From assembly GCA_030690545.1 (NCBI GenBank), contig JAUYGN010000079.1, forward strand, positions 39,386 through 103,385: a stretch of 64,000 nt of DNA. The letters run 5' to 3'. The notes beneath the pieces were generated by a model. It was not told the origin of the DNA. It searched no databases and saw only the letters and a program-made list of their open reading frames with translations. Below, piece after piece: positions 1 to 18,197 of this stretch (positions are counted from its first letter, which is position 1; the number at the start of each line of letters is the position of its first letter). The position numbers and the translations under genes were made by a program. The stretch is from Solirubrobacteraceae bacterium (lineage in GTDB: Bacteria > Actinomycetota > Thermoleophilia > Solirubrobacterales > Solirubrobacteraceae).

Positions 1-765
1 GCGGCCCTGAAGCTGCTGCTCCTCACGGTCGCGATCGTCGATGACGTCATCGCGATCGCGATCATCGCGCTCTTCTACAGCTCCGGGCTCTCCCCGGCGT
101 GGCTGGCCGCCGTCCTCGTCGGCCTCGCCACGATCGTCGGGATGCGCGTGGCCGGGGTGCGGCCGATCGTCGCGTACGTGCCGATCGGGATCGCCGTGTG
201 GGTAGCGATGCTCGAGTCCGGCGTCCACGCGACGATCGCCGGCGTCACCGTCGGCCTCCTCACCCCGGCCCGTCCCGTCGCCGGCCGACCGGTCCTCGAG
301 CTGCTCGTCCACCGCCTGCACCCGTTCACCGTCGGATTCGTCGTGCCGCTGTTCGCGCTGGCCAATGCCGGCATCGCGATCGACTCCGAGATGCTCTCCG
401 ACGCCGCGACCAGCCCCATCGCCTGGGGCATCGCCCTCGGCCTCGTCCTCGGCAAGCTCCTCGGAATCGCCGGCACCATCTTCCTGCTCGTCCACCGCGG
501 CGTCGGGACGATCCCCGACACCGTGCGCACCGTCCACGTGTGGGGCCTCGCCGCGGTCGCCGGGATCGGCTTCACCGTCTCGCTGTTCATCACCCAACTC
601 GCCTACGACGCCCCGGCCGTCGTCGACACCGCCAAGCTCGGCGTCTTCGCCGGCTCGATCATCAGCGCGGCCGTTGGCGCCACCATCCTCATCCGCGCCG
701 GACGGACCACCCCCGGGGACACGACCGTCGCGGCCCCGGATCCCATCGCCGCTCCCAGACCCTGA
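1..765 (+). CDS. nhaA: Na+/H+ antiporter NhaA, C-terminal part (5-prime end lies outside the window)
   Basis: Frame 1 is open from the window edge. The translation AALKLLLLTVAIVDDVIAIAIIALFY plus the following TM segments matches the conserved NhaA core. Stop at 763-765. Confidence 0.85.
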   Translation, partial: AALKLLLLTVAIVDDVIAIAIIALFYSSGLSPAWLAAVLVGLATIVGMRVAGVRPIVAYVPIGIAVWVAMLESGVHATIAGVTVGLLTPARPVAGRPVLELLVHRLHPFTVGFVVPLFALANAGIAIDSEMLSDAATSPIAWGIALGLVLGKLLGIAGTIFLLVHRGVGTIPDTVRTVHVWGLAAVAGIGFTVSLFITQLAYDAPAVVDTAKLGVFAGSIISAAVGATILIRAGRTTPGDTTVAAPDPIAAPRP

Positions 766-857
766 CCCGCGCCAGCGGCACTGTGGCCAACCACCTGGCG
801 CCCGGGCCACGACATCGACACATTGACGTGTGTCAATGATTTTGTGAGGATGGGCGC

Positions 858-1265
858 GTGCCGCAGTCCACGCCCGTCGACCTCGCCGAAGCGCTCGCCG
901 CCGCCTCGCCCGGTGAGCGACGCAGGGCGCTCGCCCAGGCCGACCAGCTCCTGCGCCAGCAGTGCTCCAGCGACGGATCGTTGGCGCTCCCCCTCGACGC
1001 GGCCACCGCCCAGCGACGCGCCGACACCGCCAAGGCCCTCGCCGACCCGGTCCGGCTGCAGCTGGTCGAGCTGCTGCGCCGCCAGCCGGCGGAGGTGTGC
1101 CAATGCGATCTCCAGCCGCTGTTCGACGTCTCGCAGCCGACGCTCAGCCACCACCTCGCCAAGCTCGTCGACGCCGGCCTCATCGTCGTCGACCGGCGCG
1201 GCCGATGGGCCTACTACTCGATCAACCCCGAGGCCCTGGACGACCTCCGCTCATGGCTGTCCTGA
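858..1265 (+). CDS. arsR: ArsR/SmtB-family metalloregulatory repressor
   Basis: LADPVRLQLVELL...CQCDL...SQPTLSHHLAKLVDAGLI...RGRWAYY is the classic ArsR wHTH with a metal-site CxC. It sits directly upstream of the MIP channel and arsC. Confidence 0.85.
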   Translation: MPQSTPVDLAEALAAASPGERRRALAQADQLLRQQCSSDGSLALPLDAATAQRRADTAKALADPVRLQLVELLRRQPAEVCQCDLQPLFDVSQPTLSHHLAKLVDAGLIVVDRRGRWAYYSINPEALDDLRSWLS

Positions 1266-1277
1266 GGCCAAGGCGCG

Positions 1278-2018
1278 GTGCGCGGCCCAGGCGCAACGAC
1301 GCCGAGCGACCCCCAGGCCCGGCGGCCGATGCCTGACCGGCCGCCGCTCACCCGCCGAGCGGCGAGCGAGTTCCTCGCGGCCATCGCGCTCGTCTTCTGC
1401 GTCGGCGGCGCCGTCGCCGCCGACGCGTCGGGCAGCGCGTCGCTCGGGCTGCCGGGCCACGCCGCCGTCTCCGGCCTCGCCATCATGGCCCTCATCTACG
1501 CCACCGGGCACCTCTCCGGCGCCCACATCAACCCGGCGGTCACCGTCGCATTCACGCTGACGCGACACTTCCCCCGCCGCGAAGCCACCACCTACATCGG
1601 CGCCCAGCTCGCCGGAGCCGCCACCGCCGGCGGCATCCTGCGCGCCATCTGGCCCGACGCCCCGGGCAACCTCGGCGCCAACGCCATCAACGTCCAGGTC
1701 AGCTCCGCGCTCGCCACCGAAACCGTCCTCTCCGCACTGCTCATGTTCGTCATCATCGCCGTCGCGACCGACACACGCGCGAGCGGCGCCGCGGCCGCCA
1801 TCGCCATCGGCGGCACCGTCACGCTTAACATCCTCGTCGGCGGCGCAGTGTCCGGCGCCTCGATGAACCCCGCCCGCTCCTTCGGCCCCGCCCTCGCCTC
1901 CGGCGCCTGGGACGACTTCTGGATCTGGATCGCCGGCCCCCTCGCCGGCTGCGCACTCGGCGCCGCCGCCTACCAGTTCATCCGCGCCGAGACGCCCAAG
2001 GAGGCGACCGCCACATGA
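1278..2018 (+). CDS. MIP-family channel (aquaglyceroporin-like, probable arsenite channel)
   Basis: Two NPA boxes (HINPAVT and MNPARS) and six hydrophobic segments. An alternative start at 1329 (MPDRPP) is possible. Its stop overlaps the arsC start (ATGA). Confidence 0.85.
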   Translation: MRGPGATTPSDPQARRPMPDRPPLTRRAASEFLAAIALVFCVGGAVAADASGSASLGLPGHAAVSGLAIMALIYATGHLSGAHINPAVTVAFTLTRHFPRREATTYIGAQLAGAATAGGILRAIWPDAPGNLGANAINVQVSSALATETVLSALLMFVIIAVATDTRASGAAAAIAIGGTVTLNILVGGAVSGASMNPARSFGPALASGAWDDFWIWIAGPLAGCALGAAAYQFIRAETPKEATAT

Positions 2019-2422
2019 GCCACATCCTGTTCGTCTGCCTGCACAACGCAGGACGCTCCCAGATGAGCCAGGCCCTGTTCGAACGCGACGCCCCCGACGA
2101 GCACACCGCCGCGTCAGCCGGCAGCGTCGCCGACCCCGACGGCTGGGTCCACCCCGAGGTCGTCGCGGCCATGCGCGAGCTGGACATCGACCTCAGCACG
2201 CGCCGCCCGCAGCCACTCACCCGCCATCTCGCCGAGCGCGCCGACCTCGTCGTGACGATGGGCTGCGGCGACGCCTGCCCGTACGTCCCGGGCGTCCGCT
2301 ACCTCGACTGGGACCTCCCCGACCCCGAGGGGCAGGGCATCGAGGCCGTACGGCTGATCCGCGACGAGATCGAGCGGCGCGTCGGAGCGCTCCTCGCCGA
2401 GCTCACCCGCACGCCTGACTGA
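2015..2422 (+). CDS. arsC: Arsenate reductase, low-molecular-weight phosphatase family
   Basis: N-terminal P-loop ILFVCLHNAGRSQM (CX5R-S) and a 135-aa size typical of LMW-PTP-type ArsC. Start is coupled to the upstream MIP gene. Confidence 0.9.
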   Translation: MSHILFVCLHNAGRSQMSQALFERDAPDEHTAASAGSVADPDGWVHPEVVAAMRELDIDLSTRRPQPLTRHLAERADLVVTMGCGDACPYVPGVRYLDWDLPDPEGQGIEAVRLIRDEIERRVGALLAELTRTPD

Positions 2423-2459
2423 CAGTCCCGCGTCAAGGTCCTCCGCACACTCGTTAGTT

Positions 2460-2488
2460 GGGTCCCTGAGGCCAGGCGAGCGGGACCC
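2460..2488 (+). terminator. Hairpin downstream of arsC (possible terminator)
   Basis: GGGTCCC-N15-GGGACCC, a perfect 7-bp stem about 38 nt after the arsC stop. The loop is large and there is no U-tract, so this is weak. Confidence 0.2.
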
Positions 2489-2647
2489 CCGATCCACGTG
2501 AGGAGACCGACACCCTCGCCGCAACGCACCGCCTCGAGCAGACCTCCCCGAGCTACACCCTCATACGCTCGACATGAGCCATGCGCCTCGCAAGACCCGC
2601 CATTCGGTCCCGAGACCGGGGATCGCCGACGCGCCGGGAACAGCCGA

Positions 2648-2770
2648 AATCCGCGCGAATCCCCGCGCATCCACGCCAATCCGCCGGAATAAAGGCACTA
2701 GTGCCTGCATTGTGCCCCGATTCGCCGCGATCAGCGCGGATTCAGCCATCGGCGGAATCCGGCGATTGCA
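2648..2770. repeat. Phased 10-bp iteron-like repeats flanking a perfect 14-bp palindrome
   Basis: Four head-to-tail 10-mers lie at 2651-2690: CCGCGCGAAT, CCCCGCGCAT, CCACGCCAAT, CCGCCGGAAT. The palindrome AGGCACTAGTGCCT is at 2693-2706. Opposite-orientation 10-mers follow with A at 2720, 2730 and 2740: ATTCGCCGCG, ATCAGCGCGG, ATTCAGCCAT, with looser copies out to 2770. Confidence 0.65.
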
Positions 2771-2785
2771 GCACGTTCCGTGAGG

Positions 2786-2830
2786 GGTGAGCGACGGGAC
2801 TTGGACCCGCGACCGCCTGGACCACAAACC
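2786..2830 (-). other. Fragment resembling a tRNA/tmRNA 3-prime end (T-arm plus acceptor strand), not a complete tRNA
   Basis: The minus strand reads GCGGG-TCCAAGT-CCCGT-CGCTCAC-C, which is a 5-bp T-stem, a 7-nt T-loop-like loop and a 7-nt acceptor strand. No matching 5-prime acceptor strand (GTGAGCG) occurs within 150 nt. The loop has C where the conserved T55 is expected. Confidence 0.3.
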
Positions 2831-2892
2831 GAACCGCTGGAGTGTCGAAAGCGGCCGACTTGCAGGGCTTTTCGGAACGTGATGGATCTCGG

Positions 2893-2945
2893 ATCGGCGC
2901 CGATATTGCCGCGGATTGCCGGGGATTACCGGCGATCTAGGCACT
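2893..2945. repeat. Second block of phased 10-bp repeats ending in a half-palindrome
   Basis: Exactly 10-bp phased units ATTGCCGCGG (2905), ATTGCCGGGG (2915) and ATTACCGGCG (2925), with a flanking ATCGGCGCCG (2893). They are followed by AGGCACT (2939-2945), which equals the left half of the 2693-2706 palindrome. Confidence 0.6.
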
Positions 2946-3064
2946 TCTGGGGTCGAGTGCCTGAACGAGTGTGGCCCGTCGACCGCCGTCGCGCTGCATC
3001 GACCCCTCGGTGGGACCGCGAACCCGACGAAGAAGGCGGGCAGCCTCGCCGTCGGTTGCGGCGG

Positions 3065-3400
3065 TCAGGACCGGGCCGTGCGGCCGCGGTTCGTGGGCGT
3101 CGGTTGACGGCGTGAGCGCGCTTTGCGGTTCCATCGACGGGTGAGGCAAGTGACGGCGACGTAGGAGCCGTCGATGTGCTGTCGCAGGACGAAGGCGATG
3201 TCGTCACCTACGAGCGGGTAGCCGTCCGGCGCGTCGCGCGGGCCGTCCTGCAGCCATGCCGGCGGAGCCTTGGAGGACGTAAGATGCGCGGCGAGACCCG
3301 TGAGATGGGCGAGCGCCCCGTCTCGGTCACATCCCGGCCAGACGCGCTCGACGGCGCGGTCGAGCGCGTGCCGGCTGAACATCAGCACGAACGTGCTCAT
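3065..3400 (-). CDS. Small hypothetical protein, toxin-like (DUF4258-like pattern), basic tail
   Basis: Internal ATG at 3400 whose ATGA overlaps the stop of the upstream gene. The sequence is MSTFVLMFSRHALDRAVERVWPG...GYPLVGDDIAFVLRQHIDGSYVAVTCLTRR. The F-x-x-HAL-x-R-x-x-ER start and the ...vaVTc... end resemble small RNase-type toxins. Third-position GC is high. Confidence 0.6.
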   Translation of the reverse strand: MSTFVLMFSRHALDRAVERVWPGCDRDGALAHLTGLAAHLTSSKAPPAWLQDGPRDAPDGYPLVGDDIAFVLRQHIDGSYVAVTCLTRRWNRKARSRRQPTPTNRGRTARS

Positions 3401-4512
3401 CGCTGGGCGCCCTTCGGGCGCTGGATGTTCGCGAACGGAAGCCGGCCGCGCGCATGCTCGAACTCGGCGATCAACTCGGCCTCGAGGCTGACGGGCTGGT
3501 CGGTGATGATCCAGGCGACGAGCAGGTCCGCATGGTCGGCGAGCTGCCACATGTACCGACCTCCAACGTGGGCCTCCTTGTGGCCGGCGCCGTAGCGAGC
3601 CAGTTCGCGGACGCGCTTGGACAAGGGGCGGTCAGACTTCCCGATGTAGACCAGCGGGGTCTCGTCGGTCCACCGAGCGGCGAGTTCGTCGATGGACGCC
3701 GGCAGCTCGTCGCGGTAGGGGCCGCCGACGCTACGCTCCAAGAACGCGGGCGCAGCGTCGGTGGCGCGCAGCACCACGTAGACGCCAGGCTGCTTGGGCA
3801 GCAACGATGCGTTCTCGCGAACCCGAGCGAGCGGGATGAACCCCTCAAAGCCGCGGCGCTTGAGGTCCTCGGCAGACAAGGCCGCTACGGTCGGAGTGGC
3901 CGCCGTGGCGGTCAAGATGACCTCGCGCTCAAGTTCGCGGAGCTCCAGCACGCGTCGTGCGAAAGCGACGATACGGTCCTTGTCGTCTTGCTCGGCCAGC
4001 CTCGACCAGAACGAGAGGATCTGGTCGGCGTCGGCGATCAGATCGCGTTCGGCCTTTCGCTCGCGCGGGCCCAATCCCCATAGCGCGAGTTCGTATGCGA
4101 GGTCGACCAACTGCTCATCGGTCGCGTCGGGGTCTTTCAGGAGCGTCTCGGCTTGCTCGTGGGTGTAGCCGATCAGCTCGTCCCACATGACGAACGTCGT
4201 GGTCTGCTCGGAGTCGACGATCTCAGCAAGGACGCGACGCGCGTCGTCACCGGTCGTGTGGCCGGCGACGATCAGGACCGCCTCGGGGTTGTAGTTGAGG
4301 GCGTCGGTGAGGCGGCGAATCGTGCGCTCGTTCGGCACGGTCTCCCCGCGCTGGAGGCGCCCGAGGTGCGAGTGGGCGATACCAGCGAGCTCGGCGATCT
4401 GCCGGGCGCTCATCTCGTTGTTCTCGCGCATGTCCCGCAGCAGCTCGGGCAGGCGCTGTCCGGGTTCCGCCCGGACTCGATCAGGAGTGGTCATAGGAAC
4501 CACCATAGACAT
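3397..4512 (-). CDS. Fusion protein: N-terminal XRE-family HTH, helical linker, C-terminal GIY-YIG-like nuclease domain
   Basis: HTH: MSARQIAELAGIAHSHLGRLQRGETVPNERTIRRLTDAL. C-terminus: PGVYVV...LVYIGKSDRPLSKRVRELARYG...H...EAELIAEF...LPFAN, which resembles the GIY / YIG / R / E / N elements. The spacing is non-canonical, about 43 aa between GVY and YIG. Confidence 0.75.
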   Translation of the reverse strand: MSMVVPMTTPDRVRAEPGQRLPELLRDMRENNEMSARQIAELAGIAHSHLGRLQRGETVPNERTIRRLTDALNYNPEAVLIVAGHTTGDDARRVLAEIVDSEQTTTFVMWDELIGYTHEQAETLLKDPDATDEQLVDLAYELALWGLGPRERKAERDLIADADQILSFWSRLAEQDDKDRIVAFARRVLELRELEREVILTATAATPTVAALSAEDLKRRGFEGFIPLARVRENASLLPKQPGVYVVLRATDAAPAFLERSVGGPYRDELPASIDELAARWTDETPLVYIGKSDRPLSKRVRELARYGAGHKEAHVGGRYMWQLADHADLLVAWIITDQPVSLEAELIAEFEHARGRLPFANIQRPKGAQR

Positions 4513-4853
4513 GTTTAGGTACAGTTATGTAACGTCTGCCGGACCTTTTGGACTATCGTTCGAGGAGACGCGACGCCGCGCGCGGCAGGGACATATCGAC
4601 ATCCCATGGCGCTTCGCGTAGCTCCGGGCAATGCCGACCGACTCGCGCGCTGAGCGACCGCTGGCGGAAAGCAGCGGGTCAGGAGCCGCGTCGTTCCAGC
4701 TCCTGGCAGGGATTCCGCGAGGGTCCACGAGCGCATCGACAAGGCCCACGTGCCGCGCCTGAGTAGCCGCCCGGCCTGCGCCCTGCGCGCGCTGCGCCCA
4801 GCAGCACGCGTCGCCCGCCGAGCCCCCCCCGGCCACCAGCGCCGGGCGGCGCG

Positions 4854-6523
<1,670 letters not shown>

Positions 6524-6527
<4 letters not shown>

Positions 6528-7348
6528 CGGGGCCGTCCCAGCGAGTCTAGGTGCCGCAGGCCCGGCAGCTTCTCGATGACCTTCGAGATTGACCGAAATT
6601 CCCCGAAAAGATTCACCGCCAGCAGGATGCCGAGCGCGATCAGCTGCTCGCTCGGGTCGAGCGTCAGCACGATCCACAGGCCGGCGATCGCGCCGATCGC
6701 GTTGGAGCCGGCATCGCCGAGCATCGCCCGCTCGCGCAGATCGAAGAAGCCCGCGACGAGCACCGGCGCGAGGAACAGCCCGAGGCCGGCCAGCGCCTCC
6801 GTGTTCTGCGTGCTGGCCGTCAGGCCGATGCCGAGCAGGACGAGCGTCTTGGCGCTGCGGCCCGGCCGCAGGTCGAGCAGGTTGAACGTGTTCGTGGCGA
6901 GCACGAGCACAGCGGTCGCCAGCAGGAAGTCGGCGTCCGACCCGGGCAGCGACGAGGCGACGAGCAGCGCCAGCCCGAGCGTGCCGACCGCCTTCAGCGC
7001 GCCGGTCGAGAAGCCGCCCGTCAGCACGTCCTTGCCATGGCCGCGCCAACCGCGCGAGGAGCCCGACAGCAGGTCGTCGAGCAGGCCCAGCAGCGCGACG
7101 CCGGGCACGAAGATGATCGCGAAGCCGAGGTTGTCCGGATAGACGTCGAGGTCGGCCAGCCGCGCGAGCGCCATCAGCGGGATCAGCGCGATCAGCGCGA
7201 CCGGCACGATCACGATGCCCAGCGGGACCGGCAGCAGGCGCCCGCGGTAGTTCTCCCGCGTCAGGCCCGCTTCGGAGAGTCGCTTGAGCACCAGCGGCGT
7301 GAGCGCCACGGCGACCAGCAACGAGAAGACGAACGGCAGGGCTTGCAC
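6524..7348 (-). CDS. Glycosyltransferase family 4 (MraY/WecA-like polyprenyl-phosphate sugar-phosphate transferase) membrane protein
   Basis: Multi-pass membrane protein with [17 protein letters not shown] (a variant of the NxxNxxDGxDG motif) and [10 protein letters not shown] (GDxGS). Its stop overlaps the pyrG start (ATGA). Confidence 0.75.
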
Positions 7349-7386
7349 CGGTACGTGAACCTAGCGAGCCGCGCGGACGATCGGCG

Positions 7387-8250
7387 TCACCGAGGCCGCC
7401 CGCCGAGCGGCGGCAACAGCGCCTGCGCATCGTCGCCGCGTCCGAACGAGCCCTGCGCTCCCGCGAGCACGAAGACGAGCGCGGCGCGGCCGGCCGGCTC
7501 GTCGAGGTTGTCGACCGTCGACAGGTCGCGGTCGCGGAACCAGCCGATGTGCGACGGGTCGCTGTCGCGCCGCTCGGCGCCGACGACCTTCACGCCGGTC
7601 TGCGCGAGACCGCGCGCGATGCCGTCCTGCAGCGCGTCGAGCCGCTCGGCCGCCGCCTCCTCCTCGGGCTCCTCGGAGGGACGCAGCACGATCACGCCGT
7701 CGAGGTTGCCGAAGCCGCCGCTGAAGGACTGCAGCAGCGCGTTGCGCAACTGGCCGACGAGCCGCCCGCCGTCGACCATCTGGACGCCGATCCGACGACC
7801 GAGGTCGTCCAGCAGCGAGGGATCGCGCTGCAGCGCCACGTAGCGCGTCCCGCGGGAGCGCTCCGCGAGCGCCTCGAGATCGATCTCCTCGCGGACGACG
7901 GCGACGAGCGACAGGTTGGCGCCCGTCGGCTCGAGCGCCTCGCGGATGATGTCCGGCGCGTCGTCGTCGTCGCCGAGCAGGACGAGGCCGATCCGCAGGC
8001 CGCGCAGCTCGCCGCCCGTGAGGATCGGATAGGCGGCGTCGGCGAACCGCTCCAGCTCGCGGACGCGCGACCGTGCCTCGTCACGCTCGCGGTCGGCGTT
8101 GCGGACGTCGGCGCGCAGCGAGTCGCGCAGGTCCTCGCGCGCGGAGGACACGAGCTCCCGGTCGCCGATCGCGACCCCGAGCAGCAGCCCGACGACGAGC
8201 GCGATGAAGACGGCTGCCAAGGACAGCGCGTGGTAGCGAAAGTCGAACAT
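7387..8250 (-). CDS. SteB / MctB-family (DUF3186-like) membrane-anchored protein
   Basis: N-terminus [29 protein letters not shown] followed by a coiled coil, as in the mycobacterial MctB and corynebacterial SteB family. Its position between steA and pyrG matches known actinobacterial synteny. Confidence 0.75.
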
Positions 8251-8258
8251 TCAGAAGA

Positions 8259-9401
8259 TCACTGCAGCCCGAGCACGACCTCGACCTTGAGCCACATCAG
8301 GTCGGCGAGGTCGCGCAGGGCGGGCGTCAGCACGACGATAGCCAGCAGGCACAGCAGCCCGGCGAGCGCGACCACGACGAGTGGCCGGCGGCCGGGCAGC
8401 GGACGGTACAGCCGGCTGACGCCCTTGGCATCGACGAGGATCTCGCCGAGCCGCAGGCGCGTGAGGAACGTCGAGGCCATCCCGCGACGGTTCTTGTCGA
8501 GGAACTCGACGAGGTTGAACTGCGAGCCGACCGAGACGATCAGCTCGGCGCCCTTCTCGGCGGCGATGATCATCGCGACGTCCTGGCTCGTCCCGGGCGC
8601 CGGGACGAGCTTGAAGGGCAGGCCGAGCGACTCGAGGTGCTCGCGTCCGGGGGCGCGGCCGTCGGGGTAGGCGTGGACGATCAGCTCGGCGCCGCAGCGC
8701 AGCGCGGCCTCGCTCGCGGAGTCCATGTCGCCGACGATCATGTCGGGCTTGAAGCCCTCCTCCAGCAGCGCGTTGGCGCCGCCGTCGACGGCGATGATCC
8801 GCGGGCGGACGTCGCGGATGTACGGCCGCAGCATGCGCAGGTCCTTCTGATGATCGACGCCGCGCACGACGATCAGCGCCGGGCGATCGCGAAAGTCGGT
8901 GTCGAAGCGCGGCAGCTCGATGCGTCCCGACAGCAGCTCGCGCTCCTCGAGCATGTGCTCGATCGTGTTGCGCGCGAAGGCCTCCAGCGCATCGCCGATC
9001 TCGTGACGGCGCTCGTCGGTGGCGGCGCGGACGGCGGCGGGCTCGCGCACCTCGCCGGTCACCAGCACCTTCTCGCCGCGCGCGACCGATCCGCCGCGGA
9101 CCGTGATCTCGTCGCCGTCCTTGCATTTCTTGAAGAGCGTGTCGTCGGGCAGGTCGACGAGATGGATCCCGGCCTGCACGAGCAGCAGCGGACCCATGTT
9201 CGGATAGGCGCCCGTCGACGACGGGCTGCAGTTCAGCACCGCCTGCACGCCCGCCGCGATGAGATCCTCCGCGGAGACGCGATCGAGGTCGCGGTGATCG
9301 AGGATCGCGATGTCGCCAGAGGCAAGCGTCTTGACGATGAGCTTCGTGCGCCGCCCCAGGCGAGCGCGTCCGGACAGCTCGCGGGCGACGGCGACGGCCA
9401 T
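8259..9401 (-). CDS. steA: Cytokinetic-ring-associated protein SteA (thiamine pyrophosphokinase-like domain plus C-terminal TM)
   Basis: IAILDHRDLDRVSAEDLIAAGVQAVLNCSPSSTGAYPNMGPLLL... with a C-terminal TM helix. Synteny with steB and pyrG. Confidence 0.8.
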   Translation of the reverse strand: MAVAVARELSGRARLGRRTKLIVKTLASGDIAILDHRDLDRVSAEDLIAAGVQAVLNCSPSSTGAYPNMGPLLLVQAGIHLVDLPDDTLFKKCKDGDEITVRGGSVARGEKVLVTGEVREPAAVRAATDERRHEIGDALEAFARNTIEHMLEERELLSGRIELPRFDTDFRDRPALIVVRGVDHQKDLRMLRPYIRDVRPRIIAVDGGANALLEEGFKPDMIVGDMDSASEAALRCGAELIVHAYPDGRAPGREHLESLGLPFKLVPAPGTSQDVAMIIAAEKGAELIVSVGSQFNLVEFLDKNRRGMASTFLTRLRLGEILVDAKGVSRLYRPLPGRRPLVVVALAGLLCLLAIVVLTPALRDLADLMWLKVEVVLGLQ

Positions 9402-9414
9402 CGGCTGAGTCTAG

Positions 9415-10491
9415 ATGGCGTTGTTAACGGGATGCGAAGATCGGCGTGCAGCGATTGCTAGCGTGTCGCGGGCTGTGCTGATACCGCTCTCAGCGGCGAC
9501 TTCGGACCGTCTGCGAGACGTCTGTGGCGAGGAGCCCGGGTTCTTCTGTCGCGAGGTGCTCGACCGCACCGGCGACCGCTCGCTCGCCGAGCTGTCGGAC
9601 AACCTGCTCGGCATGACGCTGACGGTCGTCGTGATCTTCGTCGTCGCCCTGATCATCAACCGGCTCGTCGGCCGGGGGATCAACCGCACCCTGCACACCC
9701 TGCACTCCGGCGCCGTCCGCGAGCGTCTCGGCTCGATCCGCCGCCGCACGCCCGCCGCCCTGCTGGAGACGACCGAGACGAGCCTGCGCGCCGAGCAGCG
9801 CATCACGGCGCTGACGAGCGTGCTGCGCAGCGTCTCGACCGTCGTGATCTTCACGATCGCGGGCTTTCTCATCCTCGGCGAGTTCGGGCTCAACCTCGCG
9901 CCGCTGCTCGCCGGCGCGGGCATCGTCGGCCTGGCGCTCGGCTTCGGCGCCCAGTCGCTCGTCAAGGACTTCCTCTCCGGCCTGTTCATCCTCGTCGAGG
10001 ATCAGTTCGGCGTCGGCGACATCGTCGACCTCGACCAGCAGACGTCGGGCACGGTCGAGGCCGTCTCGCTGCGCACGACGCGCCTGCGCTCCGTCGACGG
10101 CACGGTCTGGCACGTGCCCAACGGCGACATCCGCCGCGTCGGCAACAAGAGTCAGCACTGGTCGCGCGCGCTGCTGGACATCGAGGTCTCCTACGACACG
10201 GACATCGACCAGGCCAAGTCGACGATCAAGCGCGTCGCCGACGGACTGTGGCAGGAGCGCCACGACATCATCGAGGAGCCGCAGGTCTGGGGCGTCGAGC
10301 AGCTCGGGCCCAACGCGATCGTGATCCGGCTCGTCGTGAAGACCCGGCCCTCGGACCAGTACGTCGTGAGCCGCGAGCTGCGCCAGCGACTGAAGGAGGC
10401 CTTCGACCTCGAGGGGATCGAGATCCCGTACGCGCAGCAGGTCGTCTGGCATCGCGACGAGCCCGCGCCGCAGCCGGCCGGCGACGAGTAG
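9415..10491 (+). CDS. Small-conductance mechanosensitive channel (MscS family)
   Basis: TM helices followed by DFLSGLFILVEDQFGVGDIVDL...GTVEAVSLRTTRLRSVDGTVWHVPNG, the MscS beta-domain signature. The start is uncertain. Confidence 0.85.
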   Translation: MALLTGCEDRRAAIASVSRAVLIPLSAATSDRLRDVCGEEPGFFCREVLDRTGDRSLAELSDNLLGMTLTVVVIFVVALIINRLVGRGINRTLHTLHSGAVRERLGSIRRRTPAALLETTETSLRAEQRITALTSVLRSVSTVVIFTIAGFLILGEFGLNLAPLLAGAGIVGLALGFGAQSLVKDFLSGLFILVEDQFGVGDIVDLDQQTSGTVEAVSLRTTRLRSVDGTVWHVPNGDIRRVGNKSQHWSRALLDIEVSYDTDIDQAKSTIKRVADGLWQERHDIIEEPQVWGVEQLGPNAIVIRLVVKTRPSDQYVVSRELRQRLKEAFDLEGIEIPYAQQVVWHRDEPAPQPAGDE

Positions 10492-10508
10492 CCCGCCATA
10501 CTGATGCC

Positions 10509-10766
10509 ATGTCCAGCCGCGTCGTCCTCTTCTCGACCGACTCCTGCACGTACTGCGGGGCCGCGAAGTCGCTGCTCAGCACGCGCGGCGTCGCCTTCGA
10601 GGAGGTCGACCTCAGCGAGCATCCGGAGCTGCAGGCCGAGCTGACGAGCGTCACCGGCCTGGAGCGCTACCCGCAGATCGTCGTGGACGGCGAGCCGCTC
10701 GGCGGCCTCAACGAGCTTCGCGCGGCCGAGAAGTCCGGCCTGCTGGCGTCATGGGGCAGCGACTGA
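10509..10766 (+). CDS. Glutaredoxin
   Basis: [19 protein letters not shown]... contains the CxxC motif (CTYC), followed by [13 protein letters not shown]. 85 aa from the internal ATG at 10509. Confidence 0.85.
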
Positions 10767-10767
10767 G

Positions 10768-11172
10768 GTGGCTCGCGCGCCAAGCCCCGTCCCACAGCCT
10801 CCGAGCTTCTACGAGGCCGTCGGCGGAGAGCCGACGTTCCGGCGCCTCGTCGCTCGCTTCTACGCGGAGGTCGCCACCGACGAGACGCTGCGCGCGCTGT
10901 ATCCGGAGGACGACCTCGGTCCCGCCGAAGAGCGTCTGCGGCTGTTTCTGATCCAGTACTGGGGCGGCCCGACGACCTACTCCGACATGCGCGGCCATCC
11001 GCGCCTGCGCATGCGCCACGCGCCCTTCGGCATCGGCCCGGCCGAGCGCGACGCGTGGCTGCGGGCCATGCGCGTCGCCGTCGACGAGGCGCCGCTGTCG
11101 GGAGCGCGACGCGAGCAGCTGTGGGGCTACCTGGAGTCCACCGCGGACCACATGATCAACCGCCAGCGGTAG
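10768..11172 (+). CDS. glbO: Group II truncated haemoglobin
   Basis: [22 protein letters not shown]...[29 protein letters not shown]...[12 protein letters not shown] is the typical trHbO signature. Confidence 0.85.
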
Positions 11173-11223
11173 CCGGCGACCGAGCACGAGCCGTTCCGAC
11201 GCGCGGGAACCTAAGATTGCGCG

Positions 11224-11484
11224 ATGGCGACCGTGCGACTCCGGGGACAGCTCGAGAAGCTCGCGGGCGGCGTGCCCCAGCTCGAGATCGAGGCCGGCAC
11301 CGTCAGCGAGCTCCTGCAGCAGCTCGAACGCGATCATTCCGGCCTCGAGGGCTGGATCCTCGACGAGCGCGGCGTCCTGCGACGGCACATCAACGTCTTC
11401 GTCAACGGCGAGCCCGCCGAGCCGCAGACGGCGATCGACGCCGACGACCGCATCGAGATCCTGCCCGCGATCTCCGGCGGATGA
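11224..11484 (+). CDS. MoaD/ThiS-family ubiquitin-like small protein (C-terminal GG)
   Basis: 86 aa. INVFVNGE...DDRIEILPAISGG ends in Gly-Gly, as in beta-grasp sulfur carriers. Confidence 0.75.
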   Translation: MATVRLRGQLEKLAGGVPQLEIEAGTVSELLQQLERDHSGLEGWILDERGVLRRHINVFVNGEPAEPQTAIDADDRIEILPAISGG

Positions 11485-11494
11485 CGCGGGCCTG

Positions 11495-12556
11495 ATGATC
11501 GAGCTGCTCGTCGGGACCCGCAAGGGTCTCTTCGTGCTCGACGGCGAGCCGGGGTCGCGATTTGCGATCACGACGCGTGCGTTCGTCGGCGAGCCCGTCG
11601 ACTACGCGACGCGCGACCCGCGCAGCGGACGCCTGTTCGCCGCCGTCACCTCACCGTTCTGGGGTCCGCGCATCTGGTACACCGACGGAGACCCGGCCGG
11701 TGAGTGGGAGCCTGCGCGCGGCGTCGCGCTGCCGAAGGGCGGCAGGGAGGCGCTCAAGCGCATCTGGGTGATCGTGCCCGGCGAGGCCCCCGGGCTGCTC
11801 TATGCGGGCGGGGACCCCGGCGTGCTGTTCGAGAGCCGCGACGACGGCGCGACCTGGGCGCTCAACAAGGCTCTCTGGGAGCACCCGACGCGGCCGCGCT
11901 GGCGGCGTGACTCGGGCGGCCTGTCGGTCCACTCGATCGCGCCCTGGCCCGGCGACCCGCAGCGCCTGGCGCTGGCGATCTCGGCGGCCGGCGTCTGGCT
12001 GACCGAGGACGGCGGTCTGACCTGGTCGCACGGCAACGCCGGGATCGTCGCCGACTACCTGCCCGAGGAGACGCGGGCACACGCGATCGACCTCTGCGTG
12101 CATCATCTCGAGCGCGCGCGGCTGCAGCCCGAGCGACTGTTCCTGCAGTTCCACGGCGGCGTCTACCGCTCCGACGACGCCGGCCGGTCGTGGACCGGCA
12201 TCGCCGCCGGCCTGCCGCACGACTTCGGCTTTCCCGTCGTGCTCGATCCGGCCGATCCCGACAGCGCGTACGTGATCCCCGTCACGACCGAGGACCGCGT
12301 CACCGACGGGCGCGTCGTCGTCTTCGAGACGCGCGACGCGGGCGCCAGCTGGATCCCGCGTGACGAAGGCCTGCCGCAGGACGACGCCTACCTCTCGATC
12401 CTGCGCCAGTCGTTCGCGGCGACCGGCGAGGGATCGTCGCTGGAGCTCTACTTCGGCGCGACCTCGGGCGAGATCTTCGGCTCGAGCGACGCCGGTGCGA
12501 GCTGGTTTCGCGTCGCCTGGCGGTTGCCGGCGATCGCGTCGGTCCGCCCCGGCTGA
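11495..12556 (+). CDS. BNR/Asp-box repeat beta-propeller protein (sialidase-like fold)
   Basis: Five SxDxGxxW Asp-boxes: SRDDGATW, TEDGGLTW, SDDAGRSW, TRDAGASW, SSDAGASW. Confidence 0.75.
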   Translation: MIELLVGTRKGLFVLDGEPGSRFAITTRAFVGEPVDYATRDPRSGRLFAAVTSPFWGPRIWYTDGDPAGEWEPARGVALPKGGREALKRIWVIVPGEAPGLLYAGGDPGVLFESRDDGATWALNKALWEHPTRPRWRRDSGGLSVHSIAPWPGDPQRLALAISAAGVWLTEDGGLTWSHGNAGIVADYLPEETRAHAIDLCVHHLERARLQPERLFLQFHGGVYRSDDAGRSWTGIAAGLPHDFGFPVVLDPADPDSAYVIPVTTEDRVTDGRVVVFETRDAGASWIPRDEGLPQDDAYLSILRQSFAATGEGSSLELYFGATSGEIFGSSDAGASWFRVAWRLPAIASVRPG

Positions 12557-12615
12557 ACGCGACCGCACGACCTCCGCAGGCGCCGACGCGCGCGCGACGA
12601 TTACCCTGGCGGGCG

Positions 12616-13515
12616 ATGACCGTCATCCCCGCTTCCGCCGCGCGCCGCTCATGCCTGTCCGTTCCGGGCTCGTCGGCGTCGATGCTCGCCAAGGCGCCGC
12701 TGCGCGGCGCCGACGAGGTCATCGTCGATCTCGAGGACGCCGTCGCCGTCGCCGCGAAGGACGACGCGCGCGAGACGACCCTCGCGGCGCTCGGCGAGCC
12801 GCAGTGGCACGGCGTGCGCGCGAGCGTGCGGGTCAACGCGCCGCGCACCCCCTGGTGCCATGCCGACATCGTCGCGATCGCCTCGGCCACGACCGGCCCG
12901 GAGTCGATCATCGTGCCCAAGGTCGAGAGCGCGGGCGACCTGGCGTTCGTCGACCGCCTGCTCGACGGCGCCGAGGCCGCGGCTCGGACCGGCCGCCGTC
13001 CGCTGCGCGTGCAGGCGCTGATCGAGACCGCCGCCGGCATCGCTCGCCTCGACGAGATCGCCGGCGCGTCGTCACGCCTGGACTCGCTGATCCTCGGCTA
13101 CGCCGATCTGTCGGCGTCGCTCGGTCGGGCGGCAGGCGCCGGGGCCGAGCTGGACTCGTGGCGCGCGATCCAGGACGCGGTCCTCGTCGCGGCGCGCACG
13201 CACGACGTCGCGGCGATCGACGGGCCATACCTGGGGATCGCCGTCGACGAGGGCTTCATCGCGGCCGCGCAACGCGCCCGCGCGATGGGATTCGACGGCA
13301 AGTGGGCGATCCATCCGGCGCAGGTCGCGGCGCTCAACGCCCTGTTCACCCCCTCCGACGAGGAGGTCGAGCACGCGCGCGCGGTGATCGGTGCGCTCGA
13401 TGATGCGGAGCGGGAGGGCGGCGCCGGCGCCGTGGCGCTCGACGGTCAGATGCTCGACGAGGCCGTCCGCGTCGCCGCGCTGCGCGTGCTCGCGCGTGCC
13501 GGCACCGCTGCCTGA
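12616..13515 (+). CDS. HpcH/HpaI aldolase / citrate lyase beta-subunit (CitE)-like protein
   Basis: RSCLSVPGSS..ML.KA...ADEVIVDLEDAV, then IETA.G....EIA and FDGKWAIHPAQV. These match citryl-/malyl-CoA lyase-like motifs. Confidence 0.8.
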   Translation: MTVIPASAARRSCLSVPGSSASMLAKAPLRGADEVIVDLEDAVAVAAKDDARETTLAALGEPQWHGVRASVRVNAPRTPWCHADIVAIASATTGPESIIVPKVESAGDLAFVDRLLDGAEAAARTGRRPLRVQALIETAAGIARLDEIAGASSRLDSLILGYADLSASLGRAAGAGAELDSWRAIQDAVLVAARTHDVAAIDGPYLGIAVDEGFIAAAQRARAMGFDGKWAIHPAQVAALNALFTPSDEEVEHARAVIGALDDAEREGGAGAVALDGQMLDEAVRVAALRVLARAGTAA

Positions 13516-13537
13516 GCGGCCCGCCGCAGCCCGCGCG

Positions 13538-14137
13538 TCATTCGCAGAACGGGATCCTCGGGATGCCGATCAGCGTGACCCGCTTCGTCGTCGTGTCGAC
13601 GGCGAACTCGATCCTGCCGCCGCCCTGCCTGGGCACGCGCACGAGCGTGATCGCGAACGTCGCGTCGGTGCTGTGATCGAACCGCGCCGCGGGGAACGCC
13701 CTCCTGATCGCAGCGGAGGTCGAGCCGATCCGCACGCCGCGGGCGGCCGCGCCACCACGGATGACGATCGTCGCCACCTTGCGCGGCGCGCGGCGCGTGA
13801 GGTCGACCGATCCGCGCAGCGGCGCCCGCAGCGATGCCGAGCGCGTGCCCGGTCCCGCGAGCTCGCAACCGGGTCGGAGCTTGCCGAGATGCCCGCCCGC
13901 GCGCAGCGCCGTATAGGTCTTGCCGAGCTTGACGGCGCCGACACCGGACGGCGTCGCCGACCGGGGCGCGGCAGCGACCGCGACGGCCACGGCGCCCGAC
14001 GCCGCGAGCGTGACGATCATGGCGAGCGCCGAGCGGCCGCGAGTCCGTCCCGCATGCGCAGTGAATAGACTGGCGAGAACGGGTATTGGACGCACCGGAG
14101 GATGGTATCGCGCCGCATTTGTTGCTCGCGCAATCAT
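13538..14137 (-). CDS. Hypothetical secreted protein
   Basis: Signal-peptide-like RTRGRSALAMIVTLAASGAVAVAVAAAP followed by a high-GC3 ORF. The start is uncertain (14137 or 14020). No recognisable domain. Confidence 0.5.
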   Translation of the reverse strand: MIARATNAARYHPPVRPIPVLASLFTAHAGRTRGRSALAMIVTLAASGAVAVAVAAAPRSATPSGVGAVKLGKTYTALRAGGHLGKLRPGCELAGPGTRSASLRAPLRGSVDLTRRAPRKVATIVIRGGAAARGVRIGSTSAAIRRAFPAARFDHSTDATFAITLVRVPRQGGGRIEFAVDTTTKRVTLIGIPRIPFCE

Positions 14138-14294
14138 CTGATACGATGCCGCGCGGCGTCGTGTGGGCACCCCCCACTCGCGCGACCGCCTCCTCTCCCA
14201 TTGTTCAGAACGGGCCGCCGCTGCGGTGGCAATCGAGCAGACGTGTGGGATGAGTCGCGAACGACGACGCGCCGACACATCTGAAAGGGATCGC

Positions 14295-15239
14295 ATGGCT
14301 AGGACTACGACAACGAGCGCGCGCCGACGTGGCGAACACAGCGCCCCCCCGAAGCGCCCCAAGCGCCGCACGCCGGCCGAGGAGTCCGCGCGGCAGACCG
14401 CCCGCGCCCAGGCCGAGATGACCGCCGACTCGCTGCAGACGTTCCTCAACCAGGCGTCGCGCTACGAGCTGCTCACAGCAGCCGAGGAGATCGCGCTCGC
14501 CAAGCGCATCGAGCGTGGCGACGTCGACGCCAAGGACCGCATGATCAATGCGAACCTGCGCCTCGTCGTCTCGCAGGCGCGCCGGTACCAGGGCCTCGGC
14601 CTGCCGCTCGGCGACCTCGTCCAGGAGGGCACGCTCGGACTGATCCGCGCGGCCGAGAAGTTCGACTGGCGCAAGGGCTTCAAGTTCTCGACGTACGCCA
14701 CGCTGTGGATCCGTCAGAGCATCCAGCGCGGCCTCGCGAACACGTCGCGGACGATTCGCCTCCCGACGCACATCGAGCAGCGCGAGCGCAAGCTCGCCCG
14801 CGTCGAGCGCGACCTGACGGCGAAGCTGTCACACGATCCGTCCGACGAGGAGGTCGCGGCCGCGGCCGACATGACGGTCGCCGACATCCTCGCCCTGCGC
14901 GAGGCGCGGCGTCACGTCACGAGCCTCGACGTGCCGATCGGCGACGACGGCGACAGCAATCTCGGCGACTTCATCGCCAGCGACCGTCCCGACCCCAGCG
15001 AAGAGGCCCAGACGAGCGAGCTCGAGCGCACGGTCGCCGACGCCCTCGGGCGGTTGACCGGCGAGGAGCGCCGCGTCGTCGAGCTGCGCTATGGGCTGCG
15101 TGACGGTCGCGAGCGGTCGATCGAGGCGACGAGCCGCGAGCTGAGCATCACCCGTGATCGCGCCCGCCAGCTCGAAGAGGCCGCGATGCGCAGCCTCGAG
15201 GGCGAGGCTGCGCTCGCCGGGCTGCGCGAAGCCGCCTAG
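14295..15239 (+). CDS. RNA polymerase sigma factor, sigma-70 family (group 1/2, RpoD/SigB-like)
   Basis: Region 1.2/2: YELLTAAEEIALAKRIERGD, NLRLVVSQARRYQG, LVQEGTLGLIRAAEKFDWRKGFKFSTYATLWIRQSI. Region 4: ATSRELSITRDRARQLEEAAMRSL. ATG at 14295 is preceded by GAAAGGGA. Confidence 0.9.
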   Translation: MARTTTTSARRRGEHSAPPKRPKRRTPAEESARQTARAQAEMTADSLQTFLNQASRYELLTAAEEIALAKRIERGDVDAKDRMINANLRLVVSQARRYQGLGLPLGDLVQEGTLGLIRAAEKFDWRKGFKFSTYATLWIRQSIQRGLANTSRTIRLPTHIEQRERKLARVERDLTAKLSHDPSDEEVAAAADMTVADILALREARRHVTSLDVPIGDDGDSNLGDFIASDRPDPSEEAQTSELERTVADALGRLTGEERRVVELRYGLRDGRERSIEATSRELSITRDRARQLEEAAMRSLEGEAALAGLREAA

Positions 15240-15249
15240 CGCAGGAGCG

Positions 15250-15897
15250 TCAGGATCCCGCCGGCGGCTTGCCGGCGGGCCGTCCGCCAAGCTTGATCGT
15301 GCCCTGCTTGAAGGGGATCGAGCCCAGCGATCCCTGGGCGATCCGCCAGGCCGGCTCGACTGGCGGAGGCGGCTCGGCGCCTGCGTCGGACTCAGCGCCC
15401 GCGTCCGGCTCGGCCTCGCCGGCGTCCGGCTCGGCCTCGTCGGCGACCGGCTCGGCCTCGGCAGCCAGAGCCGTTTCAGCAGCCGGCGTCGCTTCGGCGA
15501 CCGGCACGTCCTCGGTGGCTGACTCCGGCGCCGTGGCTGACTCCGGCGCCGTGGCTGCCTCCGGCGCCGCAGCTGGATCCGGCTGGGCGGCCGGCGGCGG
15601 ATCGCCGGCTGCCTCGTCCGGCGCCGGGGCAGGCGCCGCCTCGGCCTCGGTGGCCGCGGGGCTCGCCGCCAGATGGATCGGGCCGTGGCCGACGACCGTG
15701 CCGTCGGGACCGACGAAGCCCGGATCGGCCCCGGGCTGCGGCTCCGCGGCCGGCACGCTCAGAAGCGGCGCCGGCGTCTGCGCGCCGGCTCCACGATCAC
15801 CGCGTGAGCCACGCGCCGCGAGCAGGATGCCGAGCACGATCGCCAGGACGGCGATCGCCGCAGTCGGCGCGTCACCCAGAGCCGCCAGAAGCTGCAT
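15250..15897 (-). CDS. Membrane-anchored Ala/Pro/Glu-rich low-complexity protein
   Basis: An N-terminal TM segment (AAIAVLAIVLGILLAA) is followed by an acidic A/P/E-rich repetitive region and a short conserved-looking C-terminus (WRIAQGSLGSIPFKQGTIKLGG). Confidence 0.55.
   Translation of the reverse strand: MQLLAALGDAPTAAIAVLAIVLGILLAARGSRGDRGAGAQTPAPLLSVPAAEPQPGADPGFVGPDGTVVGHGPIHLAASPAATEAEAAPAPAPDEAAGDPPPAAQPDPAAAPEAATAPESATAPESATEDVPVAEATPAAETALAAEAEPVADEAEPDAGEAEPDAGAESDAGAEPPPPVEPAWRIAQGSLGSIPFKQGTIKLGGRPAGKPPAGS
15401..15463. repeat. 21-bp tandem repeat x3 inside the A/P/E-rich gene
   Basis: GCGTCCGGCTCGGCCTCGCCG / GCGTCCGGCTCGGCCTCGTCG / GCGACCGGCTCGGCCTCGGCA. These encode the repeated AEPDAGE-type peptide. 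Confidence 0.8.
15515..15568. repeat. 18-bp tandem repeat x3 inside the A/P/E-rich gene
   Basis: GTGGCTGACTCCGGCGCC x2, then GTGGCTGCCTCCGGCGCC. These encode the ATAPES repeats. Confidence 0.8.
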
Positions 15898-15906
15898 ACC
15901 GGAAGC

Positions 15907-16416
15907 CTACGCCTCGGCCCTGTCGTATACGTCGGCAGCGTCAGCTCCCATCACCCGCTCGGCCATCTCGGCCTTCAGCTCGTCCAAGCGCGCATCGTCG
16001 GCTGCGCTGCGCCCATCCTTGCGCGCGAGGTCGATGAACTCGGGTGGCACGTAGCCGTCGCGCAGCACGAGCGTCACCGAGCGCCCCCCGTAGCTGACCT
16101 CGAACACGAAGCGCTCGCGCTCGCGACCGAGCTCGGGACGCGCGAGCGAGCGATCGACCGTGTAGCGCTCGCCGCTGACCGCCCGCGTCACGAGCTCGAA
16201 GCCGTCGCGCGCGCCGGGACCCCCGAACGACGTCCGCAGCACGATCTCGCGCCGCGCCGGCACCTCGCCGTCCGCGGTCAGCAGCGCGAAGGCGCGCTCC
16301 ATGACCTTGAAGGCGTGGGCGACGCCACCCGGCGAACCCGGGCCGTGATACTTCATCATGTCCTCGAACGAGTAGGCGATCGTCCGCCCGAGCTCGCGTA
16401 CCTCGATCAGCGTCAT
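15907..16416 (-). CDS. Hypothetical protein (weak FmdE-like N-terminal pattern)
   Basis: Internal ATG at 16416 overlaps the stop of the upstream hydrolase gene (ATGA). SFEDMMKYHGPGSPGGVAHAFKVMERAF resembles the FHGHxCPG region of FwdE/FmdE, but the Cys and His residues are replaced. Confidence 0.6.
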   Translation of the reverse strand: MTLIEVRELGRTIAYSFEDMMKYHGPGSPGGVAHAFKVMERAFALLTADGEVPARREIVLRTSFGGPGARDGFELVTRAVSGERYTVDRSLARPELGRERERFVFEVSYGGRSVTLVLRDGYVPPEFIDLARKDGRSAADDARLDELKAEMAERVMGADAADVYDRAEA

Positions 16417-17240: not shown

Positions 17241-17296
17241 GCTACCGCTTCGCGCTGGGTCGACCTGCCGCCCCGTTTCCTGGCAGGCTGTGCCGT

Positions 17297-17842: not shown

Positions 17843-17981
17843 GGCAGGCGGCAGGCGGCGACGCGACGGCGTCCGGTCCGCTGGGGACGACGTCGTCGCC
17901 GAGCTGACCGTAGGATGGGGCCGGGCTGCGGGTTGTGCCCGCAGACCATGACTCGTACCGGGGAAACGAGGGGGCGCCGGC

Positions 17982-18197
17982 ATGCCTACGCAGTCACGAA
18001 CGTTGATGCGATGCGAACGCTGCCGGGCTGCGATCAGCAGCGCCGACGCCTCGGACCGGATCCGGCACGGCGTCGCCTGCGGGGTCTGCGGCGGGACGCT
18101 CACGCTCCCGGACGGGCAGTGGCGCACGGACGGCACCGACGACCCGCCGGAGCCGCGGCGTCAGGCGAGCGACTCCCAGCCCAGCAGCTCGCCGTAG
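17982..18197 (+). CDS. Small zinc-ribbon protein (hypothetical)
   Basis: CERC...CGVCGG forms two CxxC pairs. Third-position GC is high. An alternative start lies at 18006. The 3-prime end overlaps a convergent ORF. Confidence 0.4.
   Translation: MPTQSRTLMRCERCRAAISSADASDRIRHGVACGVCGGTLTLPDGQWRTDGTDDPPEPRRQASDSQPSSSP

Follow-up and report, generated by a model that had tools for sequence, protein, structure and literature searches.

The window analysed here, a stretch of 64,000 nucleotides from a Solirubrobacteraceae contig (JAUYGN010000079.1, positions 39,386 to 103,385), has a G+C content of 0.72 and shows, at positions 2648-2962, two arrays of phased 10-bp repeats. These arrays lie between the stop codon of a plus-strand arsC gene at 2422 and the end of a small minus-strand open reading frame (ORF) at 3065, which leaves 640 bp without a convincing gene. 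The lack of a gene had been noted in an earlier description of this DNA (the original prediction), and two filters agree with it: ORFs at 2423-3064 show no Pfam match, and none of them passes the combined codon-composition filter used for genes in the window (at least 90 codons, third-position G+C of at least 0.80 and second-position G+C below 0.62). Read on the minus strand, from high to low coordinates, the region contains a hairpin (2939-2962), an array of four 10-bp units (2899-2938), a spacer, a 44-nt 3' fragment of a tRNA-His(GTG) gene (2784-2827) and a second, palindrome-centred array (2783-2648). The stretch 2648-2962 is probably a relic P arm-core-P' arm junction, derived from islands of the tyrosine-integrase type that target tRNA anticodon loops.

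The array next to the hairpin, here called the P arm, consists of four minus-strand units, AGATCGCCGG TAATCCCCGG CAATCCGCGG CAATATCGGC (2899-2938), delimited by Tandem Repeats Finder and by an alignment of related loci (A3). The original prediction described clean units beginning at 2905, 2915 and 2925 and ending in AGGCACT at 2939-2945, and all of these were found at those positions. It did not mention the inverted partner AGTGCCT at 2956-2962, which completes a hairpin, AGGCACT-N10-AGTGCCT (2939-2962), made of two inverted GGCAC-type sites abutting the array. The second array, here called the P' arm, starts directly after the tRNA 3' end with a box, TCACGGAAC (2775-2783, minus strand). It continues with a proximal half of AATC(G/C) units in a 10-bp register (2716-2768, minus strand, about -14 to -64 from the palindrome centre), in which the ATT-type units begin at 2720, 2730 and 2740 as claimed, although they are looser. 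Then follow the perfect palindrome AGGCACTAGTGCCT (2693-2706), again two inverted GGCAC-type sites (AGGCACT/AGTGCCT) and with its centre 84-85 nt past the tRNA 3' end, and a distal half of four units reading GGATT at +18, +28, +38 and +48 from that centre (2648-2690, minus strand). The four 10-mers at 2651-2690 are CCGCGCGAAT CCCCGCGCAT CCACGCCAAT CCGCCGGAAT, and both the palindrome and the 10-mers have the coordinates originally given. Segments 2716-2768 and 2648-2690 together form an imperfect palindrome of ~100 bp, within which 2648-2671 and 2719-2742 are 79% complementary (inverted repeat I2).

The repeats are rare in the window and their clusters are unique in the 64 kb. Tandem Repeats Finder detects period-10 arrays at 2648-2684 and 2905-2936 and no others in the window. 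The pattern GGATT-N5-GGATT, with at most one mismatch, has four matches in the window, all of them in the region, and shuffled sequences give 0.74 +/- 0.88 matches, with none of 100 reaching four. Seven of the 24 AATCC/GGATT words of the 64 kb fall inside a 280-bp span of the region, all five CGSGGATT words of the window are within 320 bp here, and four of the five AGGCACT words belong to the region. A looser copy of the unit reported at 4712-4721 does not stand out from chance, since the local alignment of the module with 4513-4860 scores 18-19 and shuffles score 20.5 +/- 2.6.

The centrepiece of the region, which the original prediction missed, is the tRNA-His fragment between the two arrays. 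Positions 2827-2784 of the minus strand read TTGTGGTCCAGGCGGTCGCGGGTcCAAGTCCCGTCGCTCACCC and match the tRNA-His(GTG) of Solirubrobacterales from the anticodon loop (TTGTGG) to the 3' end (CACCC), with one T-to-C change in the T-loop and a local alignment score of 97; no similarity is seen upstream of the anticodon loop. A 29-nt pattern taken from the fragment matched more than 120 genomes, many of them Solirubrobacterales, and ARAGORN placed a tRNA-His(GTG) at the pattern match in 35 of the 38 Solirubrobacterales-type loci scanned. The 64-kb window shows no intact tRNA by ARAGORN and the region no Rfam match, so a whole tRNA or a known RNA in the region was ruled out. Orphan tRNA-His fragments adjoining an intact gene are also present in loci L102 and L098/L150 (loci from other genomes and contigs are cited by such L numbers). 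When a tRNA 3' fragment starts within the anticodon loop, it usually marks the end of an island inserted by a site-specific integrase (Islander, PMC4383910). Since such a fragment lies between the arrays, the region is best read as an attachment (att) site for site-specific recombination, with the displaced fragment as its core, and not as the replication origin or partition site to which it had been compared; a test for excision of the islet had been among the checks proposed in the original prediction. Two other tRNA candidates were rejected: a tRNA-Asn that relatives carry 8-10 kb downstream of pyrG does not match in sequence, and a second, degenerate tRNA-His copy at 2987-2898 scores 55 (shuffles 27 +/- 5, maximum 54), which is attributed mostly to the shared units and the GGCAC motif. 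A 9-bp inverted repeat, CACGTTCCG / CGGAACGTG (2772-2780 and 2873-2881), brackets the tRNA fragment and the spacer; it is not at the equivalent place in L335, the one relative read for it, and may be due to chance.

In the window, the gap between the P-arm array and the tRNA-His fragment is 71 nt, and the unit TAATCCCCGG ends 91 nt before the fragment. The spacer contains a hairpin (2846-2874, minus strand), read from the sequence, with the stem CGAAA(A)GC/GCTTTCG and the loop CCTGCAAGTCGGCC. A loop of the form CCTGCAA(A/G)TCG(C/G)CC is kept at the equivalent place in the window, L326, L329 and L335, and the stems vary: L326 shows another stem, CAGAAGCC/GGCTTCTG, around the loop CCTGCAAATCGCC. 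Lying between the P units and the core, this hairpin could possibly be a place of DNA bending or of accessory-factor binding. A similar sequence, GAAGTGCCTGCAAATCGCCGG, follows intact tRNA-His genes in several genomes.

The P arm belongs to a family of loci. The pattern GGATTGCCGNGGATTACCGG matched 10 genomes, four of them Solirubrobacterales (L226, L326, L329 and L333), and a degenerate version of it matched 51 metagenome contigs, about 25 of which show the whole module. In the direction of the tRNA the module has the order GGCAC...GTGCC hairpin, four 10-bp units, variable spacer and tRNA fragment. The hairpin is present in all family loci, with a loop of 0-12 nt, and the unit consensus is AAATCGAACG TAATCCCCGG TAATCCACGG CTATCCGCGC. 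Alignment A3, which contains the window and 18 other loci, shows conservation unit by unit, with TAATCCCCGG nearly invariant; both the units and their phasing, whose conservation in homologous loci the original prediction had put forward as a check, are kept. The fragments beside the P arm belong to tRNA-Ala(CGC), tRNA-Val(TAC), tRNA-Met(CAT) and, in the window, tRNA-His, and always begin in the anticodon loop; with the related elements described below, five tRNA species are represented (Ala(CGC), Ala(TGC), Val, Met and His). The distance from TAATCCCCGG to the start of the fragment is 60, 79-80, 91 (window) or 102-104 nt, so that it varies mostly by one or two helical turns, and one out-of-step locus shows 94 nt. 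The arrays are not specific to the islet beside them, a point on which comparison with related genomes had been suggested: they occur in at least 25 loci with unrelated neighbours, which include AbiE, SnoaL-like genes, a GNAT and LuxR. Three module patterns gave 0 matches in IMG/VR, and the phage and plasmid collections, PLSDB included, show similarity only to the tRNA piece. With 10-mers that are uncommon in the window and with units and phasing kept in homologous loci, the non-random, helically phased arrays of the original prediction are borne out and likely form a conserved platform for the binding of several proteins. In a tRNA-Met subfamily (L334, L382 and L355), two direct GTTACCC repeats replace the GGCAC hairpin and the units are ~40 nt nearer the core, a variant which suggests a co-evolving second DNA-binding specificity.

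The P' module, with its GGCAC palindrome ~86 nt beyond the fragment, was found in some of the family loci. After the tRNA 3' end, the window, L335 and L329 show the same order: TCACGGAAC, phased AATC units, AGGCAC(T/C)AGTGCCT and inverted GGATT units. The box TCACGGAAC directly follows the tRNA-Ala fragments of L335 and L329, the register of the proximal AATC units is common to the window and L335, and the distal GGATT units have the same register (~+18, +28, +38 and +48) in all three. The palindrome of L335 is identical to that of the window and L329 shows AGGCACCAGTGCCT. In all three loci the palindrome has its centre about 85-87 nt past the tRNA 3' end, despite their different tRNAs (His or Ala) and the different sequence in between.

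The relation between the two modules is given by L385, a longer piece of the L329 contig, which shows in this order a P' module, an 11-kb defence island, a P module, a tRNA-Ala fragment, a second P' module and a second island. The first island contains a Type ISP restriction enzyme, AbiEi/AbiEii and other genes, and the second contains MazE/PIN, SRA-McrA-like and NACHT genes. Because of this order, P' and P can be taken as the left and right ends of one type of element, and a P-fragment-P' stretch such as that of the window is, on this comparison, apparently the junction of two successively inserted islands. The original prediction had treated both arrays as a single structure around the palindrome; they belong instead to two modules, the ends of two adjacent islands. 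Tandem accretion is seen in L385 and in L098. The P arm of L326 adjoins a P'-side flank with GGTACC-type repeats, similar to repeats after the tRNA-His of L112, which fits the accretion of unrelated elements. Other loci show the two ends of an island: in L342 and L360 the hairpin and units are preceded, at 1.3-1.5 kb, by an intact tRNA-Ala(CGC), with SnoaL-like genes or a GNAT in between, and in L342 the displaced fragment follows. The two adjacent defence islands of L385, at 600-19531 and bounded by P'/P modules, also include a DUF4231 gene. Runs of paralogous SnoaL/NTF2-like genes (~130 aa) are located at tRNA-Ala(CGC) in L333 (3000-5100) and L342 (880-2240), separated by tRNA-Ala fragments and hairpin-plus-unit modules, with the look of a cassette array. 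In L333, L342 and L360 a SnoaL/NTF2-like gene (a stub in L360) begins ~45 nt from the hairpin and is directed away from it.

Two related elements provide a link to an integrase. L390 is a complete element of ~6.8 kb with a tRNA-Ala(TGC) and a PF00589 integrase gene at one end and a P arm at the other. Its integrase end shows two GGTGCC repeats (GCTGGTGCCA) ~90 nt from the tRNA end. Its P arm shows the palindrome GGCACTGGTGCC, four phased (A/T)ATCG units (GGATCGCCAG ATATCGGCCA GAATCGGGCG GCATACCGGG), a spacer of 87 nt and a fragment of tRNA-Ala(TGC) with its start in the anticodon loop. L150 and L098, which are parts of one Solirubrobacteraceae contig, show an intact tRNA-His with a terminator behind it; a pair of direct GGTGCCC repeats comes ~90 nt after the tRNA end and is contained in the 3' end of a PF00589 integrase gene. 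The opposite end of this island shows the palindrome GGGCACCAGTGCC and, ~130 nt further on, a displaced tRNA-His fragment, which is followed by a second integrase gene; in L098, the A-rich steps of the stretch equivalent to the units are phased only loosely. At E<=1e-30 the integrase family counts 1035 members, for the most part from soil metagenomes and from Solirubrobacteraceae. The GGCAC motif is present on both sides of the core in window-type loci and in the integrase-bearing relatives.

In the reading as a junction of two islands, island A, with an XRE/GIY-YIG-like gene and a small ORF, would end in the P arm (2899-2962), and the P' arm (2783-2648) would open island B, which would continue into ArsC, a MIP channel, ArsR and NhaA. 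By analogy with characterised systems, a heterobivalent tyrosine integrase would place its catalytic domains on core sites at the anticodon stem-loop and its N-terminal domain on the arm sites, and the two classes of repeats could be the sites of the integrase arm domain and of a second protein, either an Xis-like directionality factor or an architectural protein. Of the two classes, the GGCAC heptamers are the likelier candidates for integrase arm sites, since both arms, P and P', of the relatives with an integrase have them in common. The four ATCC 10-mers, which share one face of the helix and are placed between the GGCAC sites and the core, are reminiscent of a filament or bending array of the Xis type. 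The 10-bp spacing, together with an arm-to-core distance stepped by helical turns, would let the arms fold back onto the core. As no integrase gene is present in either island and no intact tRNA-His gene in the window, the junction would be a relic, or a substrate mobilisable only in trans.

Several observations weigh against this reading. No integrase was found in the islet by Pfam or in the 64-kb window by tblastn with 120 family integrases (best E value 0.012). Nor was any found in the ~25 loci with ATCC arms, for which precomputed Pfam matches were used in L385 and a motif scan elsewhere; the motif scan had matches only outside these loci. The link to an integrase rests on L390 and L150, whose units are related to those of the window and not identical. 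In several genomes, intact tRNA-His genes have a flank similar to the ~35 nt that follow the fragment, so part of the P' side could be native tRNA-His flank. The box TCACGGAAC, common to tRNA-Ala-type sites, argues that at least the start of this flank belongs to the island. The far end of island A (4513-4860) shows no P' arm, no tRNA remnant and no intact tRNA-His, and since none is present at 4513-4853, island A would have to be truncated or rearranged. Of the attributes of an att site, the window has the displaced tRNA 3' fragment and repeated arm sites at defined distances on both sides of the core, the latter as anatomy only; a P-core-P' junction is present, with an integrase on neither side. 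The regenerated intact tRNA at the other island end, seen in L342, L360 and L390, is absent, and the outer island ends are missing or not visible. The clear example of accretion in this family is L385.

Four other explanations were weighed. The one that survives best keeps the att site and takes the ATCC units as protein-free, phased A/T steps that give an intrinsic bend, with only the GGCAC sites bound. The A/T dinucleotides do recur every 10 bp and the loosely phased A-rich steps of L098 would suit it, but whole 10-mers are conserved by position (e.g., TAATCCCCGG in nearly all loci), beyond the needs of curvature, and we consider this explanation unlikely. A somewhat smaller chance is given to a cis-acting transfer locus at the island ends, either like the cis-acting locus of transfer (clt) used by a TraB-type translocase or a hairpin of an origin of transfer (oriT) with accessory repeats. 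The clt and oriT sites, for example those of pIJ101 and pSVH1, also consist of a hairpin and short direct repeats, and the conservation of the units in carriers that mostly lack an integrase would agree with a role in transfer. This explanation accounts less well for an arm-to-core distance that is conserved in steps of about one helical turn, the GGCAC motif on both sides of the core fits a recombination complex, and the inspected family loci showed neither a TraB nor a relaxase gene; a transfer locus is therefore quite improbable.

A still poorer candidate is an operator array of the neighbouring XRE helix-turn-helix (HTH) protein for cooperative repression of the islet, with which the original prediction had connected the repeats. 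This protein is encoded only 450 bp away and palindromes are typical of HTH operators, but the arrays are located beyond the 3' end of its operon, between convergent genes and not at a promoter, the three loci that encode its homologues (L001-L003) show no arrays, and the loci with arrays have the other neighbours listed above, which makes such an operator highly improbable. The weakest candidate, with hardly any chance of being right, is a set of replication-origin iterons or a parS-like partition site of an integrated plasmid, which the exact 10-bp direct repeats in two orientations around a palindrome resemble, but the islet encodes only the HTH protein and the small ORF, with no Rep, ParA or ParB gene nearby (no parA/parB-type gene among the ORFs of positions 1-8000, by Pfam scan or by eye), the G+C content around the arrays is 0.64-0.67 throughout with no A+T-rich unwinding stretch, at least 20 loci keep a fixed distance between the tRNA fragment and the arrays, island ends are marked by the arrays, and PLSDB plasmids show no similarity beyond the tRNA piece. 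Of the original interpretation, the non-random, phased and conserved arrays stand; the proposed function, the tie to the XRE protein, the single-structure view and the copy at 4712 do not.

Att sites of heterobivalent integrases at tRNA genes, with arm sites of the lambda type, are known from mycobacteriophage L5 and from pSAM2 of Streptomyces. The junction of the window resembles them in its core, which is identical to a tRNA from the anticodon loop to the 3' end, in short repeated sites in both arms at tens of bp from the core and, in the intact relatives L390 and L150, in an integrase gene located next to the P' arm. A further likeness is to the Xis sites of L5 and lambda, which are also phased repeats in tandem, placed between arm sites and core. 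The junction differs from these systems in ATCC 10-mers and GGCAC heptamers that are unmatched in the phage and plasmid collections, in a P' arm that is, in the window, an inverted array of ~100 bp centred on a palindrome, and in a window copy without integrase and without a regenerated tRNA. Iteron plasmid origins share the short direct repeats at helical period in both orientations; they differ in that here there is no Rep gene or A+T-rich region and the arrays go together with a tRNA fragment and with the ends of islands.

The tDNA islands collected by Islander (PMC4383910) have the same displaced tRNA fragment at one end and a regenerated tRNA, as in L342, L360 and L390. In contrast, the window keeps the displaced fragment only, and most carriers described here are tiny integrase-less islets of 1.3-11 kb. 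Cis-mobilisable elements (CIMEs) and the tandem accretion of integrative elements have been reviewed (PMC5704250). CIMEs are likewise islands between att sites without integrase and transfer genes, and P-core-P' junctions of tandem islands occur in L385, L098, L326 and the window. The differences from the streptococcal examples are the Thermoleophilia host and a cargo of defence, toxin-like, arsenic and SnoaL-like genes, and mobilisation in trans is hypothetical here. Arm repeats at att sites, displaced tRNA fragments and tandem accretion thus belong to textbook knowledge (PMC4383910, PMC5704250). No prior description of this att family was found in literature searches for the general concepts, with no search aimed at the family itself, and the collections searched gave no match to the arms. 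Distinctive of the family are its Thermoleophilia clade, its several tRNA targets, a strongly conserved P arm, a palindrome-centred P' arm and a set of carriers made up mostly of tiny islets that lack an integrase and often contain defence genes.

A broader proposal is possible, although we consider it doubtful: in Solirubrobacterales, a large integrase family would move tiny integrase-less islets in trans, in a cassette-like accretion that stacks them head-to-tail at tRNA-His, tRNA-Ala, tRNA-Val and tRNA-Met genes, and the junction of the window would still be competent and not a dead scar. If this were true, islets with one to few genes (defence, toxin-like, arsenic or SnoaL-like) would build defence islands, keeping fully conserved P and P' arms, and each tRNA specificity would hold the arm-to-core distance in helical phase. 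The conserved sites on integrase-less islets make trans-mobilisation and the tandem build-up of defence islands testable. The natural variants in tRNA target and in a spacing of about a helical turn provide material on how arm-to-core spacing constrains recombination complexes. For Thermoleophilia, a poorly studied soil clade, a GGCAC hairpin with four ATCC 10-mers, followed after 60-104 nt by a tRNA fragment, gives a searchable signature of island ends.

With the intergenic "iteron" region re-annotated as the boundary of two horizontally acquired segments, the surroundings can also be considered. The pyrG product is 90-91% identical to those of two metagenome-assembled genomes of uncultured actinomycetes, and its next-best matches belong to Conexibacteraceae and Solirubrobacteraceae. 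DNA similarity to the closest relatives, L004 and L005 (84-85% identity), ends exactly at the pyrG stop codon (4853/4854 in the window and ~11657 in L004 and L005). Downstream of this codon L004 and L005 differ from each other, and the place is a variable spot. Neither of the two reveals an empty insertion site. The boundary reading would explain the loss of synteny at the pyrG stop codon and the presence there of an orphan HTH/GIY-YIG-like pair and an arsenic cluster.

The presumed cargo of island A consists of two minus-strand genes. The first encodes a 371-aa XRE-HTH protein (3397-4512; Pfam HTH_31/HTH_3) with a GIY-YIG-like C-terminal domain, which shows the conserved columns GxY...YxG...R...H...E...N; the best Foldseek matches of its low-confidence AlphaFold2 model are the GIY-YIG enzymes R.Eco29kI and T4 EndoII. 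Only four homologues were found among 5.8 billion proteins, and none in the GTDB genomes. The second gene, translationally coupled to the first, is a small ORF of 112 aa (3065-3403), whose product is 67% identical to that of the partner ORF in L001, weakly similar to that of L003, and without any match in Pfam, PADLOC or NCBIfam. The pair may be a rare two-gene toxin-like or defence module. In L002 the homologue of the XRE-HTH protein is located among AbiE, RmuC and Mrr genes.

The arsenic-resistance cluster (858-2422, plus strand, identified by Pfam) encodes ArsR, a MIP channel and an ArsC of the low-molecular-weight phosphatase type. It is adjoined by a gene for the Na+/H+ antiporter NhaA (142-765), which is cut by the window start. 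The cluster is not syntenic with the closest relatives, and from this and from its position beside the P' arm it is presumed to be cargo of island B. Further along the window, at 15396-15583 and probably in coding DNA, two periods of near-perfect tandem repeats occur: one of 21 bp (3.1 copies, 93% matches) and one of 18 bp (3.1 copies, 97% matches).

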